Assembly (NCBI GenBank): GCA_048886685.1 | Contig: JBHLKM010000013.1 | Coordinates: 64,001 to 128,000, forward strand | DNA from: Candidatus Hodarchaeota archaeon | GTDB lineage: Archaea > Asgardarchaeota > Lokiarchaeia > Sigyniarchaeales > SOKP01 | DNA: 64,000 bases | Reading direction: 5' to 3' | In this document: positions 1,872 through 35,233 of the stretch, piece after piece | Layout of the letters: every line of letters starts with the position of its first letter | How positions within the stretch are numbered: the first letter of the stretch is position 1 | Notes under the pieces: model-generated | The model's input: only the letters and a program-made list of their open reading frames with translations | Told to the model about the DNA's origin: nothing | Databases searched by the model: none | Program-made: the position numbers and the translations under genes

Positions 1872-2003
1872 GGGGACTTAGTATAGCCCGGTAGTACGTC
1901 AGGCTCCAGATCCTATAAGCAAACTGTACGTGCAGAAACCTGAAAGTCGGGGGTTCAATTCAGGATGCATTTCGCGTCCTTTGGATATATCCCTCAGTCC
2001 CCA
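1872..2003 (+). tRNA. tRNA-Trp(CCA) with two introns (37/38: about 1910-1937; T-loop: about 1960-1989)
   Basis: Acceptor GGGGACT/AGTCCCC+A73, D stem GTAT/GTAC, anticodon stem TCAGG/CCTGA with loop CT-CCA-G^A, T stem GGGGG/CCCTC; removing 28+30 nt leaves a 74-nt cloverleaf. Confidence 0.9.
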
Positions 2004-23307: not shown

Positions 23308-23733
23308 TTATTTAGTTAAAAATGATCCAAGGTCCATCAGATCATCACCACGTTTTACTTGGATCTTGCCTCTTATTCCTTTAACTTTCCGCTCTAAATA
23401 TATTATGGCATCAAGAGGAATTTTTTTGGGAACCCCTCCTCTTTGTTGAATAATTGCTAATAAATAATCTATGTTTTGTATGACCTCGGGATTTATTAAC
23501 TCATTATAAATTGCGTGATATACATTCGGTTGCTTGTTTTTCAGACCATTCAAGTAATTATAAGCATCTGGAGCTAACACCACCTTGAGAACATATTCAA
23601 CTTTTTCTGAAATTGTAACTACTCTATCTTTTACAAGTTCCTGATGTTTCTTCGCATCTATTATTGCTTTCATTTTTCTCATACGTATTTTTTCTAACTC
23701 ATGCTGTTCAAAATCTTTATCGCTTTCATTCAT
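23308..23733 (-). CDS. PDCD5/TFAR19-like DNA-binding protein
   Basis: ELEKIRMRKMK..., VLAPDA...L..LK...P and KI.VKR patterns. Confidence 0.65.
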   Translation of the reverse strand: MNESDKDFEQHELEKIRMRKMKAIIDAKKHQELVKDRVVTISEKVEYVLKVVLAPDAYNYLNGLKNKQPNVYHAIYNELINPEVIQNIDYLLAIIQQRGGVPKKIPLDAIIYLERKVKGIRGKIQVKRGDDLMDLGSFLTK

Positions 23734-23897
23734 TTTATTGATTATCTCTGCTTATTTAATCGTATATCTAAATAATTATATTAATAATTAATGGAGGTTA
23801 AAATAATAATTTTTTGAGAAATTTAATTCTAAATGAAAAATAATAATGATATCTTTACATCTTCTTATAAGAAGTTACATGAAAAATTAGAAAAAAA

Positions 23898-24081
23898 TGG
23901 TCCCTCCCCCCGGATTCTAGCGTGATCCGATATGGACCCTTATTTCGAGCCGGGGACCGTTCCCGGTATGGTCGATATGCACCATAACTCTCGGTTACGG
24001 CTGACGTAACTTCATTAGCTACAAGCTTTAGTACGCGACATTATCTACAGCCGAGCACTCTGACCACTGAGTTAGGGAGGG
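23898..24081 (-). tRNA. tRNA-Tyr(GTA) with three introns (37/38: 23996-24044; about 45/46: 23958-23987; about 59/60: 23915-23943) and encoded CCA
   Basis: C1-G72 acceptor CCCTCCC/GGGAGGG, A73, CCA; D stem ACTC/GAGT; anticodon stem CTCGG/CCGAG with loop CT-GTA-G^A; T stem CCCGG/CCGGG; 184-(49+30+29)=76 nt. Confidence 0.9.
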
Positions 24082-24369: not shown

Positions 24370-24888
24370 GTGATTATCATCAGGGAAGAAACTGATTATA
24401 CTGAAGCAATCGAGGCGTATAAGAACGAACCTACTGTCATTCTAGAACCATGGGGTAGAAGTATCGATCACTTACGCTTAACAATCATCGGTAAAAAAGG
24501 AACTCCTTATGCAGATGGCAAATTTGTGTTTGAAATTAAATTTCCAGACAATTATCCTTTCGCCCCTCCATATGCTTATGCTGTTACTCTAATGTGGCAT
24601 CCTAATATCGATAGCTCTATTCCACCAGGAAAACTCAACATTTGTTTAGATTTGATTAATCCAGATTTAGTTGGAAAAGTAGATGCATCAACTGGAGCAA
24701 GTGGTTGGACACCAAGTAAAACATTAACTAACATTATCGAAGCTCTCAAGGGAATGATGCATGTTGAACCTCCATTCTTTAATCCCGGAGATCCATTGAA
24801 TCACGAGGCAGGTGAGCAATATTTTAGGGCTCAGAAAAAGTTTGAGGCTAAAGCAACTGCTTGGACTAAGAAGTATGCCATGGACTAA
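24370..24888 (+). CDS. Ubiquitin-conjugating enzyme E2
   Basis: GTPYADGKF...FPDNYPFAPP, WHPNI, catalytic ICLD, WTPS, PGDPLN.EA, WTKKYA. Confidence 0.95.
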   Translation: MIIIREETDYTEAIEAYKNEPTVILEPWGRSIDHLRLTIIGKKGTPYADGKFVFEIKFPDNYPFAPPYAYAVTLMWHPNIDSSIPPGKLNICLDLINPDLVGKVDASTGASGWTPSKTLTNIIEALKGMMHVEPPFFNPGDPLNHEAGEQYFRAQKKFEAKATAWTKKYAMD

Positions 24889-27148: not shown

Positions 27149-28732
27149 TCACATAAAAGCAATAACAACATTAAACTTTTTAATTTCTGATTCTGCTAAT
27201 GCTTTTCCTAATGGACTCAGTGTAATTATGTCATTGCTTTTTATTTTGAGAGAAGTCAGTTTAATATTTGGGTCCTTTAATGAGGGCATATAGGGATTCC
27301 AATAGATTTCTTTAGTCATAGGATTTGTAATCATCCATAATTCTGAATCTAAGGTGTGTCCTGATATTTCCATTGCTTCGAATATATAACCTACATTTGC
27401 ATCAAATGGAACTACAATTTGAACATTTTCTTCGCCTTCTATTTTTCCACAGGCAAGACAATCATCCCTTTTCAGGATATTTAAGTGATCAAATTGACCA
27501 TATATGCCATTATAATTGACATATGGTGGATCCATTGGAGCACCAATATTTCGTCCATTAACTCTAAATAAAAGTTTTAGCGCTTCTTGAGATTGAATGC
27601 TAGAGATGACAGAGCTAACTGTTTGTATCGCAGCTATTTTATTTCCTAAAATATTTTCCATCTCCTCAAATTTATAATTCGGTCCGAATGTTTCTCTAAT
27701 ATTATTTTTCCAATCTTCAATTTGTTCTTCGGTTAAAGAATCTCTTTCTTCTAGAGGGACGTTCTCATCAAAAACTCTTTCTCTTAATTTTTCCAATTCC
27801 ATTTGGGCAATCTCTTTTAACTTAAGCACCTCATCATTTAAATTCAGATCTGGCTTATGACCATATTTTTTTTCAAATTCAACCTCAGCTTTAATAACAC
27901 AATGATTTCTGTTGCGGGGTAATCCTTTTAAAGTGCACGCAGCAACTAACTTATCATCAGCAGGAGGAATTGGAACTAAACACCTATAACATGGGGTTTG
28001 ATCTAATAATTCAGGTGCAAACTTCCAATCAAAAACCAATTCTATTTCTTTTCTTATTTTATTGACAATAGGATCGATTCTAGTGGATTTTATTCGCTCA
28101 ATTTCTTCTTCTAATAATTCAATTTCTCTTTGAGCTCTATAATAATCGGGATATTCAGTATCGGTAATTTCCCAAAGTCTTGCTTCTACTAAATTTTCGA
28201 TTTCATTTTCTCTGCTTTTATATTTTAATCCTCCACCCTCAGGAATTACGATTTGTACATGTCCTTCAAAACCAACTGTTCCTCCCTCAACCATAGGTTT
28301 TTTCATTCTAAGGCATATTTTATTCAAATCTAATCTAGCATTAAAATTATCTAACGCAGCAACAATAACATCTGATTCTTCATAAACTGACATAGGTAAT
28401 TTCTGAAGTTTTTCAAAATAAAAATCAACATTTAAATACGGATTCATTTCTTTCAATCGTTCTGCGGCAACTTCTGCTTTTGGGCGTCCTTCATCTCCAG
28501 GTCTAAATAGCATTTGACGCGATAAGTTAGAAGTCTCAATTGTGTCAAGATCGACTAATATCAATTTACCTATTCCCATGAGTGTAAAGTCTTTTGCAAT
28601 TTCGCATCCTAAAGCCCCAACTCCAACGATCATAATGCAACCATTATTGATTACTTCTTGATCCCATCCATCAATGAGCTGCTGTCGAGCATACATACGT
28701 GCTTTAACAATATCTTCGATTTTTTCAGTCAT
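27149..28732 (-). CDS. Ubiquitin-like activating enzyme E1 (Uba3/Uba2-type)
   Basis: YARQ, VGVGALGCE, DLDTIETSNLSRQ, CYRC/CLAC zinc pair, catalytic CTLKGLPRNRNHC, C-terminal UFD-like region. Confidence 0.92.
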   Translation of the reverse strand: MTEKIEDIVKARMYARQQLIDGWDQEVINNGCIMIVGVGALGCEIAKDFTLMGIGKLILVDLDTIETSNLSRQMLFRPGDEGRPKAEVAAERLKEMNPYLNVDFYFEKLQKLPMSVYEESDVIVAALDNFNARLDLNKICLRMKKPMVEGGTVGFEGHVQIVIPEGGGLKYKSRENEIENLVEARLWEITDTEYPDYYRAQREIELLEEEIERIKSTRIDPIVNKIRKEIELVFDWKFAPELLDQTPCYRCLVPIPPADDKLVAACTLKGLPRNRNHCVIKAEVEFEKKYGHKPDLNLNDEVLKLKEIAQMELEKLRERVFDENVPLEERDSLTEEQIEDWKNNIRETFGPNYKFEEMENILGNKIAAIQTVSSVISSIQSQEALKLLFRVNGRNIGAPMDPPYVNYNGIYGQFDHLNILKRDDCLACGKIEGEENVQIVVPFDANVGYIFEAMEISGHTLDSELWMITNPMTKEIYWNPYMPSLKDPNIKLTSLKIKSNDIITLSPLGKALAESEIKKFNVVIAFM

Positions 28733-28864: not shown

Positions 28865-31800
28865 TTATTTTTCTTTCCTTTTCTCGGCTTCCTTAATCAT
28901 CCGTTTTAAATTATCTACTTCTTCTCTCTCTTTCGCCATTTGTAACTTTTCTTGGAATTCTTGTCTTTTATTTTCTTTTAACTTTAATTCTTCAATAAGT
29001 TCTTCTTTGATTTTTATCATGTCTCCCATCATACGTCTAAATTCTTTTGCCTCATACTTTATCTCCTCCCTTTTCTGGGTATCTGCAATTTCCTGTTGTT
29101 TTCTCCTTTCTTCAATTAGATTAATAACTTCATTAGCAAGGGTACTAACTTCTCCGATAGTTTCTTTTAATTGCGCTTCCTCTGCTTTTCTGCGGCTTTC
29201 TTCAGAGGTTCTCTGCTTATCTAGTTGTTCTTGAATGCTTTGAATTTTTAATTCTTCACTTTCAACTCTTTTTTCGAGTTCTTTTGTATTTCTTATTTCA
29301 GTTTCAATATATTTTGTTTCTTCAAGCCAACCAATTTCTTTAAACTTTTCTTTTGCAGTCTCAAAATTCTGATAAGCTCTCTCAAAGTCATGATATGCTG
29401 CCCACTTTTTGCCCTCATCTATTAATTTTAATCCCTTGTCTCTAATTTCTTCCATTCGACGTTTACTCAGGATTAATTCTCTATATTGCCTTTCCTGTTC
29501 TCTCTTTAGCTTTTCTTGTTCTATTCTTCTTGCTTTAATTTCCTTTTGAAAAACTTCATACTCTTTTTGCCTTTGAATAAGAGTTTGTTCTTCTAAACGC
29601 TTCTTTTCTTGAAAACTAACTTGTTCTTGTTGTAGATCTTTGATTAATGCATTTAGATTATTTATTTCAGGTTCCCATCCAATATTATCTGCTAAAAGAT
29701 TCCTAGCTTCAATATACAATGATATAGCTTTAGTATAGTCAGGACTTAATTGTTTCAAATATTTCCCAGCTTCATCTAACATGGAATATGCTGATTCTCT
29801 TATACTAGCTTGTTCTTGGACGATTCTTTCTCTTTCCTGAAGTGCTAACAATTGAGCTTTTTTCTTTTCCCTTTCTTGTCCTTGTCTTTCTTCAATAAGT
29901 AACTGTAAATCTTTTTCTTCTTGAATTTTTTCTATTTCTCTCTGAAATTGAAATTCTTGCATTTCTTCTTTTTGTTTCATTAGCTGTTGTACTTTTGTTA
30001 CCATGCCTTTAATGGAATCTGTGGGGAAATGCAACTCATTTAATATTAATTCTGCTTTTCTATAACTTTCGATAGCTTTATCATATTCAAAATTCTTTAG
30101 TAATTCCTCAGCAGCATCTAATATCTTGAATGCATCTTGTTTTGTTAATTCAAGTTTCTCTTTCAATTTTTCCATTTCTTCAAGTTGAACTTGCTTTGTT
30201 TGTAATCGCCCTGATTCTTTTTTAAACTCATCAGCGATATTGCGTTGGAATTCCCATTCTTCTTTTTCCTTTTGGATACTTGATTCTAGCTCCTTCTGTT
30301 TTTGTATTTGATGTTGTTTTTTCTTCTCTTGAACTTTTTGGATCATTTCGCGAATTACTTCGGTTGGAAAGGCTATTTCATTTAAAATAATTTCAGCAGA
30401 GTGATAAGATTCAAGTGATTTATCATATTGAGCTTGATTCATATAGATTTCTGCTTCTTCAAGGAGGTTAAAAGCTTCTTCTTTTCTTCTTTCCATGTAT
30501 TCATAAGACTCTCGTTGCTTTTCAAGCTTTTTCTGTTTAGATTTCATTTTTATCTCATTTATTTTTACATTTTCAGCGATTTTTCTCTGAAATTGAATTT
30601 CCTCTCTCTCTTTTTGTAAATTTATCTCTAAATCTTTCTGTTTCGACATAATCTCTTCTCTACTTTTTGATTGAATTTTATTTATCATTTCCTTAATTGC
30701 TCCAGTAGGAAATCCGATTTCGTATAAAATTAATTCTGCTTGACGATATTTTTCAATTGCTTTTTCATATTGCCTTGTATTTAAAGCTTTTTGAGCATTC
30801 TCTATTAATTGAAATGCATCTGACTTCTTTCTTTCAAAAATTGTTAGTAAATCCTCACGCTTTTGGATTTGGACTTTTTTTTCTCTTAATCTATTATTTT
30901 CACTCTGTATTAATTCATAAACCTTCCTCTGGAATTTTTCTTCCTCTTCTTTTTGGTTAAGTAATAATTGTTGCTTAGCTTTTTCACTTAATTCTAATTT
31001 TCTTTTCCTGATCTTAATAGTCTTGATAGTATCATTTAACAATTTTAAATAGGACTCAGTCCAACCAATTTCGGTTAAAATATTAATAGCTTCGTTGTAC
31101 TTGTTTAAAGCATCTTCAAAACTACTTTGTTTAAGAAATACTTCAGCATCCTCAATAATCTTAAATGCTTCTTGTTGCTTAATTAGATTTTGCGCAGACA
31201 TTTTTCTTTGCATTTCTATTGACTTTAATTCTTTCATAGCTATTTCTTTTTCAAGTTCTTTATGTAGATTGATTTGTTCTATAAATGAATAATTAGCCTT
31301 TTCTTCTTCAATTGCTTTTTCTAATTCTCTTTGTTGAATGATTATCTCTTTTCTTTTTCTCTTCTGGATATCATTTATAGCCTCTTGAATTATAGGTATT
31401 TCATCAACCCATTGTATTTGGGCAAATATATTAGTTACCTCATTATATAATCTGAGTGCATTATCATAATTACCTTGTGAAAGATGTACTTGAGCTTCAT
31501 CTAATAATTTGAATGCGAGGTTCTTTTTTTCTTCGCGAAAAGCAAGTTCTTCTTCTTGCTTTCTGAGTTTAATTTCTCTTTGTTTTAATCGTTCTTGCTG
31601 AGTAGAAATTTCAAGTGCAATTTGAGCTTGAAAAGCCTTTTCAAGTTTTTCTTTTTCCAAAAGTTCTTCTAAATCTTTCTGTTTCTTTAATTCTGCTTCG
31701 CGCTTTTTATCTTCAACAGCTCTAATTGAATTCTGAATTAATTTTATTTCATCATCCCAATGAATTTCTTTAAAGATTTTTAATGCCTCTTGATATAACA

Positions 31801-34800
31801 CAATTGCTTTATCAAATTCTCCTGTGCCAATTTTGGTTTGTGCTTCTTCTAATAAATGAAATGCTTTTTCTTCCATTTTTTCAGTTTTTACTCTAATTTC
31901 TTCCTGTTTTTTTAGTTCCTCTTGCTTTTCCCTCATTTTTTCCTTTTCGATTCTTACTTTTTCAGAAATCTGCTGTTGAAACCTTAGATCCTCCTGTTCT
32001 TTCCTAAAGCTTAATTCTAATTCTTTCAGTCTATTCAATTCTTCTTCTCTTCTTCTTTCTTGAATCTTTTGAATCATTTCTCTAATTAATTCAGACGGAT
32101 AACCAATTTCATTTAATATTAATTCAGCTTGTCTATATTTTTCTATAGATTTATTATATTGACCTTGGTTTAATGAATTTTCTGCTTCATCCATTATAGT
32201 AAAAGCCTCTGCCTTACGAATTTCTATGATATTTAACATTTCTTCACGTTTTTGGAGCTGGATTTGTTTTTCTTTAATTCGATTTTGTTCTGTTTTCAAA
32301 TATTCTGAAATTTTATTTTGAAATTCTTCTTCTTCTTGTTGATGTTTTAATTTTAATTCAAATTCAATTTGCTTTGATGTTTCGTCTTCTACTTTTTTAT
32401 TTTGTATTGTAATAATTGTATCATCCAATAATTTCAAATAATCTATCCCCCAACCAATAACTTTTAAAATCTCTCTCGCATTTTGATAATTTTTTATAGC
32501 TTCATCATATTTATAAACCTGAACTAAATTTTCTCCATCCTCCATTAGATCAAATGCTTCTTCTTGTTTAGCCAAATTTTGTGCTGATAACGATTTTTGT
32601 TTCTCTTTAAATTCTAAATCTCTAAGAGCTTCTTGTTTTTCTCTTTCTCTCTGATATTTTATTTTTTCGATAAAAGCTTTATCATTAACTTCTTTATTGA
32701 TTGATTTTTGCAATTGTTTTTGTTTAAAGATTAATTCGTTCCTCCTCTTTTCCTCAATATCTTGGATTGCTTCTTTTAATAGTGGAATTTCATCTTTCCA
32801 TTGAATTTGGGCAAAGATATTTAAAACCTTATAATAAATCTCGAGTACAGAATCATAGTTATTAACAGCAACTAATTTTTGCGCCTCATCTAGCAATATA
32901 AATGCTTCTTCTTTCTTCTTTTCACGATATACGATTTCTTTTTCATGCTCTCTAATAACTATTTCTTCTTTCTTTAGTCTTTCTTGACGTGTTTTTATTT
33001 CATTGGTTACTACTTTTTGAAATTCCTTTTCTTGCTTCTCTCTTTCTAACTCTGCTTGTAATCTTATCTGTGCCTGTAATTCAGCTTCCCTTTTTTTATT
33101 CTCAATTTCTATTATTGAAGCTTGAATTAAACTAATTTCATTTTGCCAATGAGCTTCCGCGAAAAAATTTAAGGCATCTTGAAGTATTTCAATAGCTTTG
33201 TCGAAATTTCCCTCAGATACTTCATTTTGTGCTTGTTCAAGTAGTTTAAATCCCGTTTCTCTTCTTTCTTCACGAAACTTTAATTCTTCTTCACGTTCTT
33301 TTAACTCTATTTCTCTTTTCTTAATTTTTTCACGTTCTTGTTTTAAATATTGAGTAATCTGCTTCTGGAATGCTTCTTCTTCTTTCTGTTTTTCTATCGT
33401 TTCTTGCATTCTTATTTGTTTTTGAATTCTCTGGTTTCTTCGTAGCTCCTCAACTTTAAATATCGCATTTTCAATTAGAGGGATCTCATCTTTCCAATGA
33501 ATTTCAGCAAAAATATTAGCCGTAGTTTGATAAGCTAATATCGCATTATCATAATCTCCTTGATTTATATAATTAATTGCAGAATCCAATGATTTAAAAG
33601 CTTCTTTTTTACGTTGCTCCAGATAAATTATTTCTTTTTCTTTATCTTTCAATATAATTTCTTTTTGTTGTAATAGCTTGCGTTCCTTATCTAATTGATC
33701 TGCAATTTGCTTTTGAAATTCCAGTTCTTCTTTTTCTCTTTTTTCTAATTTCTCTTGCATATCATATTTCTTCTTAAGTTGTGAATTCTCTATCTTTTGT
33801 ATATTAGAGATAATATTATTAATGTTTGAAACATAAGTGTTCCATCCAGAACCCAATTTTTCTATGAATTTTAAAGCTTTCTGATATTCGTCTATCGCTT
33901 CCTCATATTTTTTCTTTTGTAAAGTACTATCTGCATTACTCAGTATCTTAAAAAATTCTTTTTCTATTTTTACTTCATGATCTCTTTCTTCTTCAAACTT
34001 TAGTCTTCGTTTTTCTAGTTCCAATGCAGTTTGTTGAATTTCTTCTTCTTGCCTTCTATATATAGAATTTTGTAGAATTTTAAGATCTTTTTCTCTCTTT
34101 TCTTTTAACTGGAATGCTTTTCTTTCTCGTTCCTGCTTTTTTTTTATATCTTCTATTAAAGTAATGATAGGATGGATGTATGAGTCCCATTCTATTGATT
34201 TGAATAATTCAACAGCTAATTCAAACTTTTGTATTGCTTGTTCATAATCTTTCTCCCTATCGAATTTTTTTCCAATATCTATTAAATTAAATGCTTTAGT
34301 TTGAATTTCTTCTTCCCTTCGCTTTTTTTCTTCAAATTCAATCAACTTAGCTTTTTTCAAATCTGATTCTGACTTATCAACAAATTTTTCTCCCACAGTT
34401 TTGCTTAAAATCTCAGTAGATGCTTGTTTTTGTCGATTTTGAAAATCTTCAAATTGTTGCTTATCTTTCCTAAGTTTCTCAATAATAATTTCTATCTTCT
34501 TAGTCTGTTCATCCCAACCTATTGAATTCAATAACTCTATGGCGCTTTCATAATTCATAATTGCGTTATCGAATTTTCTTTCTTTTTCAAATTCTTTAGC
34601 TTTATCTATATGAGCAAATGCGTGATTTTGTGTTTCTTCCTCTTGTTTCTTCCTTGATCTGTAACGGGCTATAGATTCTGCTTTTTCTCTGCTTGATCTT
34701 TCCCCGAATATGCCGACAACTTCAGGTTTTATATCTTCTATTTTTTGTAAATATTCTTCAGGAGGAGACAATTCTTTTTGTTGTCTCTGGTGAATAAATT

Positions 34801-35233
34801 GTTCCTTTTTTAAAATATCAAAAAGGTTTTTTATTTTTAATCTTAAATTTTCTAACTGAGTCTCAGACCAACCAGATTGATTTAATAAGTTAATGGCTGA
34901 AACGTATTGATTGATAGCCTCCTCAAAATAGCCACCAGATTCTAGTGTTTTCGCCCCTTCTAATAAGGCAAAAGCTTGGTTTTGAAGTTGTTCGGCTTGA
35001 GATTTTATTTGAGTCTGTTCAAACAATTTTTCTTGTTTTAAGGAGCTTTTTAATTCCTCTATTCTTTCATATATTTCATTAACTCTATGCATTAAGTATC
35101 CACTTTGTTTTAGATAATCAGCAGCTTTTTGATAATTTGAGATTGCCTGTTCAATATATTTTTCTTCTTCAAAATTTTGCGCAAGTTCTAAAAATTTTAA
35201 AGCTTCTTGAGCTAATTCTTCTGGATTTTGCAT
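28865..35233 (-). CDS. Giant (2122 aa) repeat protein of alternating TPR/MIT-like helical units and coiled coils
   Basis: About 18 copies of AF.LL..A......Y..AI..Y..A..I...I.(W/F/Y) separated by E/K/Q/R-rich helices. Confidence 0.9.
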   Translation of the reverse strand: MQNPEELAQEALKFLELAQNFEEEKYIEQAISNYQKAADYLKQSGYLMHRVNEIYERIEELKSSLKQEKLFEQTQIKSQAEQLQNQAFALLEGAKTLESGGYFEEAINQYVSAINLLNQSGWSETQLENLRLKIKNLFDILKKEQFIHQRQQKELSPPEEYLQKIEDIKPEVVGIFGERSSREKAESIARYRSRKKQEEETQNHAFAHIDKAKEFEKERKFDNAIMNYESAIELLNSIGWDEQTKKIEIIIEKLRKDKQQFEDFQNRQKQASTEILSKTVGEKFVDKSESDLKKAKLIEFEEKKRREEEIQTKAFNLIDIGKKFDREKDYEQAIQKFELAVELFKSIEWDSYIHPIITLIEDIKKKQERERKAFQLKEKREKDLKILQNSIYRRQEEEIQQTALELEKRRLKFEEERDHEVKIEKEFFKILSNADSTLQKKKYEEAIDEYQKALKFIEKLGSGWNTYVSNINNIISNIQKIENSQLKKKYDMQEKLEKREKEELEFQKQIADQLDKERKLLQQKEIILKDKEKEIIYLEQRKKEAFKSLDSAINYINQGDYDNAILAYQTTANIFAEIHWKDEIPLIENAIFKVEELRRNQRIQKQIRMQETIEKQKEEEAFQKQITQYLKQEREKIKKREIELKEREEELKFREERRETGFKLLEQAQNEVSEGNFDKAIEILQDALNFFAEAHWQNEISLIQASIIEIENKKREAELQAQIRLQAELEREKQEKEFQKVVTNEIKTRQERLKKEEIVIREHEKEIVYREKKKEEAFILLDEAQKLVAVNNYDSVLEIYYKVLNIFAQIQWKDEIPLLKEAIQDIEEKRRNELIFKQKQLQKSINKEVNDKAFIEKIKYQREREKQEALRDLEFKEKQKSLSAQNLAKQEEAFDLMEDGENLVQVYKYDEAIKNYQNAREILKVIGWGIDYLKLLDDTIITIQNKKVEDETSKQIEFELKLKHQQEEEEFQNKISEYLKTEQNRIKEKQIQLQKREEMLNIIEIRKAEAFTIMDEAENSLNQGQYNKSIEKYRQAELILNEIGYPSELIREMIQKIQERRREEELNRLKELELSFRKEQEDLRFQQQISEKVRIEKEKMREKQEELKKQEEIRVKTEKMEEKAFHLLEEAQTKIGTGEFDKAIVLYQEALKIFKEIHWDDEIKLIQNSIRAVEDKKREAELKKQKDLEELLEKEKLEKAFQAQIALEISTQQERLKQREIKLRKQEEELAFREEKKNLAFKLLDEAQVHLSQGNYDNALRLYNEVTNIFAQIQWVDEIPIIQEAINDIQKRKRKEIIIQQRELEKAIEEEKANYSFIEQINLHKELEKEIAMKELKSIEMQRKMSAQNLIKQQEAFKIIEDAEVFLKQSSFEDALNKYNEAINILTEIGWTESYLKLLNDTIKTIKIRKRKLELSEKAKQQLLLNQKEEEEKFQRKVYELIQSENNRLREKKVQIQKREDLLTIFERKKSDAFQLIENAQKALNTRQYEKAIEKYRQAELILYEIGFPTGAIKEMINKIQSKSREEIMSKQKDLEINLQKEREEIQFQRKIAENVKINEIKMKSKQKKLEKQRESYEYMERRKEEAFNLLEEAEIYMNQAQYDKSLESYHSAEIILNEIAFPTEVIREMIQKVQEKKKQHQIQKQKELESSIQKEKEEWEFQRNIADEFKKESGRLQTKQVQLEEMEKLKEKLELTKQDAFKILDAAEELLKNFEYDKAIESYRKAELILNELHFPTDSIKGMVTKVQQLMKQKEEMQEFQFQREIEKIQEEKDLQLLIEERQGQEREKKKAQLLALQERERIVQEQASIRESAYSMLDEAGKYLKQLSPDYTKAISLYIEARNLLADNIGWEPEINNLNALIKDLQQEQVSFQEKKRLEEQTLIQRQKEYEVFQKEIKARRIEQEKLKREQERQYRELILSKRRMEEIRDKGLKLIDEGKKWAAYHDFERAYQNFETAKEKFKEIGWLEETKYIETEIRNTKELEKRVESEELKIQSIQEQLDKQRTSEESRRKAEEAQLKETIGEVSTLANEVINLIEERRKQQEIADTQKREEIKYEAKEFRRMMGDMIKIKEELIEELKLKENKRQEFQEKLQMAKEREEVDNLKRMIKEAEKRKEK

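Follow-up and report, generated by a model that had tools for sequence, protein, structure and literature searches.

The first of the three introns in the tRNA-Tyr gene described here contains a conserved kink-turn module that, judged from its sequence, is probably an atypical H/ACA guide for the formation of pseudouridine at position 35 (Psi35) of its own tRNA. We give a probability of about 0.7 to the explanation as a whole, in which a Lokiarchaeia (Promethearchaeota) host has this locus as its one functional tRNA-Tyr(GUA) gene, introns 2 and 3 are ordinary, patchy insertions of the BHB type, and intron 1 is old and functional. The narrower proposal, that the guide acts in cis and is coupled to splicing (the RNA having to refold before it is spliced) in the tRNA-Tyr intron of most Asgard lineages, has in our view about an even chance of being correct. 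An earlier note on the window (i.e. the whole 64,000 nt stretch of DNA that was analysed) described the gene and its introns, but the features listed there omit this module of the 49 nt intron, which is the most informative of all.

The gene is 184 nt long and lies on the minus strand, running from 24081 to 23898 (Table 1). Excision of introns of 49, 30 and 29 nt (gene nucleotides 38-86, 93-122 and 139-167, 108 nt in total) leaves exons that join as a 76 nt cloverleaf with C1-G72, A73, the anticodon GUA and an encoded CCA, and the cloverleaf is the MFE structure of the joined tRNA, at -35.9 kcal/mol. The three introns of the earlier note are borne out by this joining and by orthologues that lack introns; the exact 76 nt tRNA of archaeal Tyr identity and the genome-encoded CCA were likewise recovered, as were the hairpins TATGGT/ACCATA of intron 2 and GGTCC/GGATC of intron 3. 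It had been stated too that standard scans often miss such genes, and both ARAGORN and Rfam (in gathering and E-value modes) were blind to this one. A genome-wide census recovered 29 candidate tRNA-like genes. Whether this is the only tRNA-Tyr gene had been left to be checked; no second copy with a GUA anticodon was found in the assembly, which is 100% complete by markers. A Tyr(ata) call made by ARAGORN on another contig (C33) was rejected as a second Tyr gene, being a tRNA-Glu with an intron in the D-arm. The U7 run that follows CCA is likely to be an archaeal terminator. The named orthologues of the gene belong to Promethearchaeota, of which MK-D1 is from the same order and a different family.

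Two genes flanking tRNA-Tyr encode an E2-like ubiquitin protein (UQ_con; 24370-24888, plus strand) and an E1-like protein (ThiF; 27149-28732, minus strand). Ubiquitin E1- and E2-like genes are typical of Asgard genomes. Downstream of the tRNA gene is an ORF of 141 aa (23308-23733, minus strand) that is PDCD5-like by eye, without a Pfam match, and an ORF of 2122 aa (28865-35233, minus strand) has a repetitive, charged, helical sequence that appears TPR- or coiled-coil-like by eye.

Table 1. Features of the tRNA-Tyr(GUA) gene and of the module in its first intron, in window coordinates and in order of transcription.
Feature	Position	Strand	Remarks
Exon 1, tRNA positions 1-37	24045..24081	-	From sequence, orthologues near-identical; acceptor 5' strand with C1, D-arm, GUA at 24048-24046, G37
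U35-A36	24046..24047	-	Sole unpaired nucleotides between the guide duplexes; predicted as the Psi-N target
Intron 1, 49 nt, at 37/38	23996..24044	-	Relaxed BHB; holds kink-turn guide-like module
5' guide segment, GUC	24037..24039	-	Pairs with G37, +1 and +2; covariation
Upper stem, 5' strand, 7 nt	24030..24036	-	Covariation
Kink-turn	24012..24029	-	2n=A variant; AA 24029-24028, C-stem hairpin 24027-24017, bulge AAU 24016-24014, GA 24013-24012
Upper stem, 3' strand, 8 nt with a bulged U	24004..24011	-	Covariation
3' guide segment, CAGCCG	23998..24003	-	Complementary to exon positions 29-34
Exon 2, positions 38-43, 6 nt	23990..23995	-	
Intron 2, 30 nt, at 43/44	23960..23989	-	Relaxed HBh'; most orthologues lack it
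Exon 3, positions 44-59	23944..23959	-	C54 at 23949
Intron 3, 29 nt, at 59/60	23915..23943	-	BHB, h 4/4, H 3/4
Exon 4, positions 60-76	23898..23914	-	G72, A73, CCA at 23900-23898
U7 run	23891..23897	-	Adjoins the 3' end of CCA; orthologue tails U-rich

Intron 1 differs from introns 2 and 3 in that it occurs, and can be aligned, throughout the class. The 41 distinct introns of a first set all have the same layout, with a short leader, a stem of 7-8 bp, (G/A)A, then a hairpin or loop, a 3 nt bulge ending in U, GA, the 3' strand of the stem and then CAG(C/U). A phylum-wide search using a pattern of exon letters only extended this set to 87 distinct introns, drawn from 13 Asgard families and one unassigned locus; for the loci L035-L061 the letters CGC and GTCAG formed part of the search pattern. 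The module was present in 50 of the 50 distinct Lokiarchaeia introns that were parsed, including those of MK-D1 and Loki-B35. The kink-turn (or kink-loop) is of the GA/GA type in 55 of the 87 and of the AA/GA type in 32, the host among them, and 2n=A kink-turns bind L7Ae (PMC3985660). The last base of the bulge is U in 85/87.

At the base of the kink-turn stem the two guide segments would pair with the exon and the start of the intron on either side of U35-A36, forming duplexes of 6 bp (3') and 3 bp (5') in the host and of 4-8 and 1-4 bp in its relatives. This is the layout of a bipartite guide that leaves U-N unpaired, with duplexes in the H/ACA range of 3-10 bp. The pairings show, as read from the sequences, a three-way junction in which exactly U35 and A36 are free at the base of the stem, and the predicted structure of the module (kink-turn and pairings together) is well supported. 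Its geometry is that of an H/ACA guide, since two duplexes flank an unpaired U-N and a kink-turn lies in the upper stem (PMC11077068). The stem from the pocket to the tandem (G/A)A-GA pairs measures 7-8 nt in the 87 introns; the literature value for the pocket-to-kink-turn helix of H/ACA guides is 5-6 bp (PMC2651775). There is no H/ACA lower stem within intron 1, nor an ACA or ANA box 14-16 nt from the target; the host intron ends 8 nt past the pocket, and the sequence that follows is exon or intron 2 and is not conserved. Because lower stem and ACA are both absent we do not class the module as a classic H/ACA guide. It has instead the parts of an atypical H/ACA-like guide, i.e. a kink-turn hairpin whose flanking strands are complementary around a U. 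A covariance model built from the intron gave no further element of this kind in the genome (next match, E 0.58), and among 30 genome matches to a loose regular expression the full layout was seen by eye at the tRNA-Tyr locus alone.

The 3' segment pairs with G34, U33, C32 and G31 in 97-100% of introns, often reaching as far as 29 or 28. On the 5' side of the stem the segment is paired with G37 in 100%, and its pairing at +1 is Watson-Crick in 97% (84/87) compared with 60% in shuffled sequences. The pair at +2 is formed in 69% (41% when shuffled), while +3 and slid registers lack such pairing. All four Watson-Crick combinations occur at +1 (A:U 64, U:A 17, G:C 2 and C:G 1), and A:U coexists with another type within seven families, so that if the families are monophyletic there have been at least seven independent double changes. 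Changes on the exon side are also matched, i.e. A31:U and G29:C in family f14 and U29:A in family f19. In a MAFFT alignment of 36 sequences that was not fitted to structure 95% of cells pair, against 24-49% in slid registers, and there are 45 two-sided cell changes compared with 12 in shuffles (0/500). Shuffle tests ignore kinship, and we therefore place the weight on recurrence across families. The pairing of G37 and +1 is not a splice motif, because both are bulged or unpaired in a BHB.

The guide fold and the BHB fold compete for some of the same nucleotides in the host, where the 3' guide segment overlaps the strand of the BHB central helix at an offset of 3 nt in register. Of 78 introns, 40 have a BHB strand near the 3' splice site that is distinct from the guide segment. 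On folding, the guide pair was favoured over the BHB pair in 69/78, with a median probability of 0.97 versus approximately zero. For the host precursor ViennaRNA gave -12.8 kcal/mol for the guide fold, -7.4 for the BHB and -18.0 for the MFE, with a guide probability of ~0.08; the program does not model kink-turns, and folding of the single host sequence does not select the guide fold. Neither fold is the MFE, and the guide fold lies 5.4 kcal/mol below the BHB.

We propose the following sequence of events. In the precursor the 3' segment would pair with exon positions 29-34 and the 5' segment with G37, +1 and +2, with the kink-turn hairpin between them. L7Ae would bind the kink-turn and recruit Cbf5-Nop10-Gar1, and these proteins would pseudouridylate U35, most likely in cis. 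A change of register would then put the RNA in the weaker BHB fold for splicing, and the (alpha-beta)2 splicing endonuclease would mature the tRNA. Nucleotides 39-41 form part of the central helix of intron 2 and are needed in the anticodon stem for the BHB of intron 1, so the two motifs are mutually exclusive and splicing is probably ordered. Intron 2 would probably leave before intron 1, since 39-41 are free for it while the guide fold holds.

The host encodes the proteins that such a scheme would use. Cbf5 with a PUA domain, L7Ae-family proteins and Nop10 all scored over the cut-off, and a probable Gar1 fell just short, at 28.3 bits (cut-off 29.3). A stand-alone aPus7 may offer an alternative route to Psi35. 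The kink-turn could instead serve, on binding L7Ae, as a switch of folding or timing that keeps the precursor from being spliced, with Psi35 made by aPus7 on the exposed U35-A36 or absent. An aPus7 was found in 60/60 genomes checked and in the host genome, the Pyrococcus abyssi enzyme modifies U35 and requires an A 3' to it (PMC2651775), several Asgard families have the anticodon-arm pairing without a kink-turn, and the kink-turn RNA sR666 binds Cbf5 without guiding (PMC11077068). Nevertheless we consider the switch unlikely. It leaves unexplained both the fixed spacing of 7-8 nt between pocket and kink-turn and the fact that precisely two nucleotides are free at the stem base. Moreover, the KR/RH pair of aPus7 is altered in 23/30 genomes that have the module as opposed to 8/30 that do not. 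The host enzyme retains the catalytic Asp and the Lys of motif IIIa, and has DKQ in motif II in place of DKR/DRH. The motif IIIa Lys is the most important aPus7 residue (PMC2651775), and since it is kept, and the KR/RH pair is kept in three module-bearing families, the difference in motif II can be taken as a trend only.

The module was missing from ten families (f8, f20, f21, f23-f27, f30 and f31), some of which have no intron at the site. Introns of the loci L062 and L127-L141 (f8, f20, f21 and f23-f27) have a hairpin starting at or just after G37, and an internal segment complementary to approximately positions 22-34, i.e. into the 3' strand of the D-stem, with matched changes (U25:A versus C25:G). 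They are possibly a reduced or an ancestral form of the module. In one genome of family f13 a second tRNA-Tyr gene (L073, G060:C117) has an intron that lacks it; this gene may be contamination or a mobile copy.

The same guide could also act in trans, with the intron of one molecule, either excised or still part of another precursor, directing modification of U35 in a second pre-tRNA-Tyr. There is a precedent, as the intron guide of tRNA-Trp was first proposed to act in cis and was later shown to act in trans (PMC7994747). Four introns (f14 and L112) retain complementarity at +1 even though the cis loop would be just 1 nt, too short to close. In the remaining 83 of 87 the leader allows a workable loop, and the whole fold is nested and forms within one molecule. 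The 5' duplex of 2-3 bp is plausible when tethered but would be weak between molecules, and we regard action in trans as quite improbable. Action of the guide in cis is the form that we prefer.

The positions of the three introns are well defined by comparison with related genomes, 28/40 of which gave matches. Orthologues of the same genus that lack intron 2, intron 3 or both join exactly at these sites, which fixes the junctions and rules out chance, and the junction of intron 1 is matched by Asgard tRNA-Tyr genes without introns. Most orthologues have introns 1 and 3 only, two (L004 and L012) have 1 and 2, and some (L016 and L023) have 1 only; three other Lokiarchaeia genes in the sample (L003, L017 and L036) have the same three. 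Introns at 43/44 were counted by eye in L001, L003, L004, L012, L017, L021, L036 and L042. The relaxed BHB of intron 1 has h 4/4 and H 3/4, with a U33.C mismatch. The motif of intron 2, which is patchy across the genus, has H 3/4 and no exon helix h. This intron had been placed in the variable loop; its length of 30 nt stands, and the site is refined to the boundary of anticodon stem and variable loop at 43/44 by orthologues that read ACCGAG|CGGTC. Similarly, the 29 nt T-loop intron stands as described, its register now being placed at 59/60, where the BHB score is best and where position 54 is Watson-Crick paired with intron position -3 in 30/30 genes. Junctions at 44/45 and 45/46 for intron 2, and from 53/54 to 58/59 for intron 3, were rejected from the orthologues and the BHB scores. 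An intron nested within intron 1, considered because TGTAG and CGTA each recur, was also rejected: no register gave a BHB or the correct anticodon loop, and orthologues provided no support.

There are two EndA paralogues in the genome, one having by eye the Tyr/His/Lys triad and an N-terminal loop, and the other lacking the His. Asgard EndA is reported to be an (alpha-beta)2-type enzyme with an L1 loop (PMC5829648), and three relaxed motifs fit with this and with the two paralogues. For the MK-D1 orthologue, an RNA search covered one run, as contigs only, which gave one unspliced contig of genomic length, plus two small-share runs.

The layout with three introns is ordinary for this lineage, as are C54 and the encoded CCA. 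Triple-intron tRNA genes had been presented earlier as best known from Thermoproteales, a framing that does not hold because multi-intron Asgard tRNA genes have already been published. Of the tRNA genes of three Asgard genomes, 92-95% contain introns and more than half contain several (PMC11291895); a census of 90 genomes gave up to five introns per gene, with 0.91 per gene in families other than the focal ones (bioRxiv 10.64898/2026.10.13.758758). As here, these genes contain several BHB-type introns of ~30 nt at non-canonical sites, are patchy among relatives and are missed by standard scans, and the multi-intron genes of Thermoproteales likewise have several ~30 nt BHB-type introns per gene at non-canonical positions. 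Both Asgard reports focus on Jordi-, Freyr- and Atabeyarchaea and in their accessible parts describe no functional intron module; the text of the bioRxiv report makes no mention of Tyr, guide or kink. CCA is encoded in 36/52 Lokiarchaeia tRNA-Tyr genes.

Most of the tRNA genes recovered from the host genome have an intron. A tRNA-Trp(CCA) gene elsewhere in the window (1872-2003, plus strand), also undetected by ARAGORN and Rfam, has two, one of 28 nt at 37/38 (1910-1937) and one of 30 nt in the T-loop (~1959-1988, best register 58/59). Its CCA end is not encoded, and no C/D guide is evident in the short anticodon intron. A tRNA-Phe(GAA) gene (C1:17820-17980, minus strand), miscalled as His by ARAGORN, has ~87 extra nt, comprising a long insertion in the D-loop (perhaps two introns) and a 28 nt insert in the anticodon stem.

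The T-loop begins with C54 in every junction register of the host tRNA-Tyr, as the earlier note had claimed and a scan of the registers confirmed. The accompanying suggestion that C54 might be edited is not supported. Post-transcriptional conversion to U would accord with the U54 of 61/62 other Asgard tRNA-Tyr genes and of nearly all other host tRNAs, and C-to-U editing of tRNA at position 8 is known in Methanopyrus (PMC3695527). We nonetheless think it very unlikely. Among 52 distinct Lokiarchaeia tRNA-Tyr genes, 27 have C at position 54, as MK-D1 does, 19 have A and 6 have U; A cannot be deaminated to U, so that deamination leaves A54 unexplained, and as the lineage tolerates C, A or U the constraint on this position is relaxed. 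Only one of ~28 recovered host tRNA genes has C54, the sole departures from U54 being Tyr (C54) and His (A54). The latter, tRNA-His(GUG), starts at C6:112780 on the minus strand and has a T-loop intron of 30 nt. The -3 base of the T-loop intron follows the encoded base 54 (C:G 18, A:U 10 and U:A 2), and in the host gene it is a G that pairs with C54. No deaminase-THUMP fusion was found in the genome, the sole PF00383 deaminase being a dCMP-deaminase-like protein of 149 aa; the hallmarks of CDAT8-type edited tRNAs (a systematic C in many tRNAs together with a deaminase-THUMP enzyme) are not seen. C54 is an encoded trait of the lineage and most likely stays C. In the relatives L026/L049 and L059 the tRNA-Tyr T-loop begins U54-G55, not U54-U55.

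That intron 1 might be a box C/D-type guide for 2'-O-methylation of the anticodon loop, for which the kink-turn strands resemble D' (CUAA) and C' (UAAUGA) boxes and for which the C/D guide of the tRNA-Trp intron is a precedent (PMC7994747), is extremely improbable, given that the region 5' of the D'-like box sits in a covarying stem where single-stranded guides of 10-12 nt would be required, and neither a conserved terminal C or D box nor an Rfam match was found.

If the H/ACA reading is correct, the closest prokaryotic relatives of eukaryotes would retain intron 1 because the intron is itself the Psi35 guide. It would be a new placement for H/ACA-type guides, within the substrate and excised by the splicing endonuclease. 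Since the cultured MK-D1 has the module, this reading is directly testable. No report of an intron-encoded pseudouridylation guide was found in the literature searched, the coverage of which was incomplete. The Psi35 of eukaryotic tRNA-Tyr, like m1A58, is intron-dependent (PMC12168002), and the module could provide a possible ancestral basis for this conserved dependence; the eukaryotic modification is, however, made by stand-alone Pus7, and no kink-turn guide has been described in the eukaryotic intron (PMC12168002).

The nearest known systems share the target, the architecture or the location of the module. H/ACA sRNAs acting in trans on U35 of pre-tRNA-Tyr are known, namely Sso1, Sto1, Sac1, Mse2 and Ape7 (PMC2651775) and sR115 (PMC11077068). 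Like the module they target U35 of the intron-containing precursor, are bipartite with the stronger guide on the 3' side, and have a kink-turn above the pocket; the Sulfolobales guides pair into the intron too (PMC2651775). They differ in being separate genes with both a lower stem and, 14 nt from the target, an ACA, whereas the module lies inside the intron of its own target and has neither. Guides without a lower stem or ACA are active in vivo and in vitro, requiring L7Ae and Gar1, and the H/ACA proteins of P. furiosus are active on heterologous atypical guides (PMC11077068). These guides (sR109, sR136, sR148, sR563 and those of Pyrobaculum; PMC11077068) resemble the module in consisting of a kink-turn hairpin and flanking guide strands only, short duplexes being sufficient, and self-modification through intramolecular pairing was demonstrated for sR109 and sR563 (PMC11077068). 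By contrast with the module they are free small RNAs of Thermoproteota with rRNA targets, and none is reported to be a tRNA intron or to be excised by EndA (PMC11077068). The C/D guide sR50 in the tRNA-Trp intron of Euryarchaeota (PMC7994747) is, like the module, located in an anticodon intron and guides modification of its own tRNA species. It is of the C/D class, directing 2'-O-methylation at positions 34 and 39 in trans (PMC7994747), while the module has H/ACA-type geometry and, if correctly read, would be its H/ACA counterpart.
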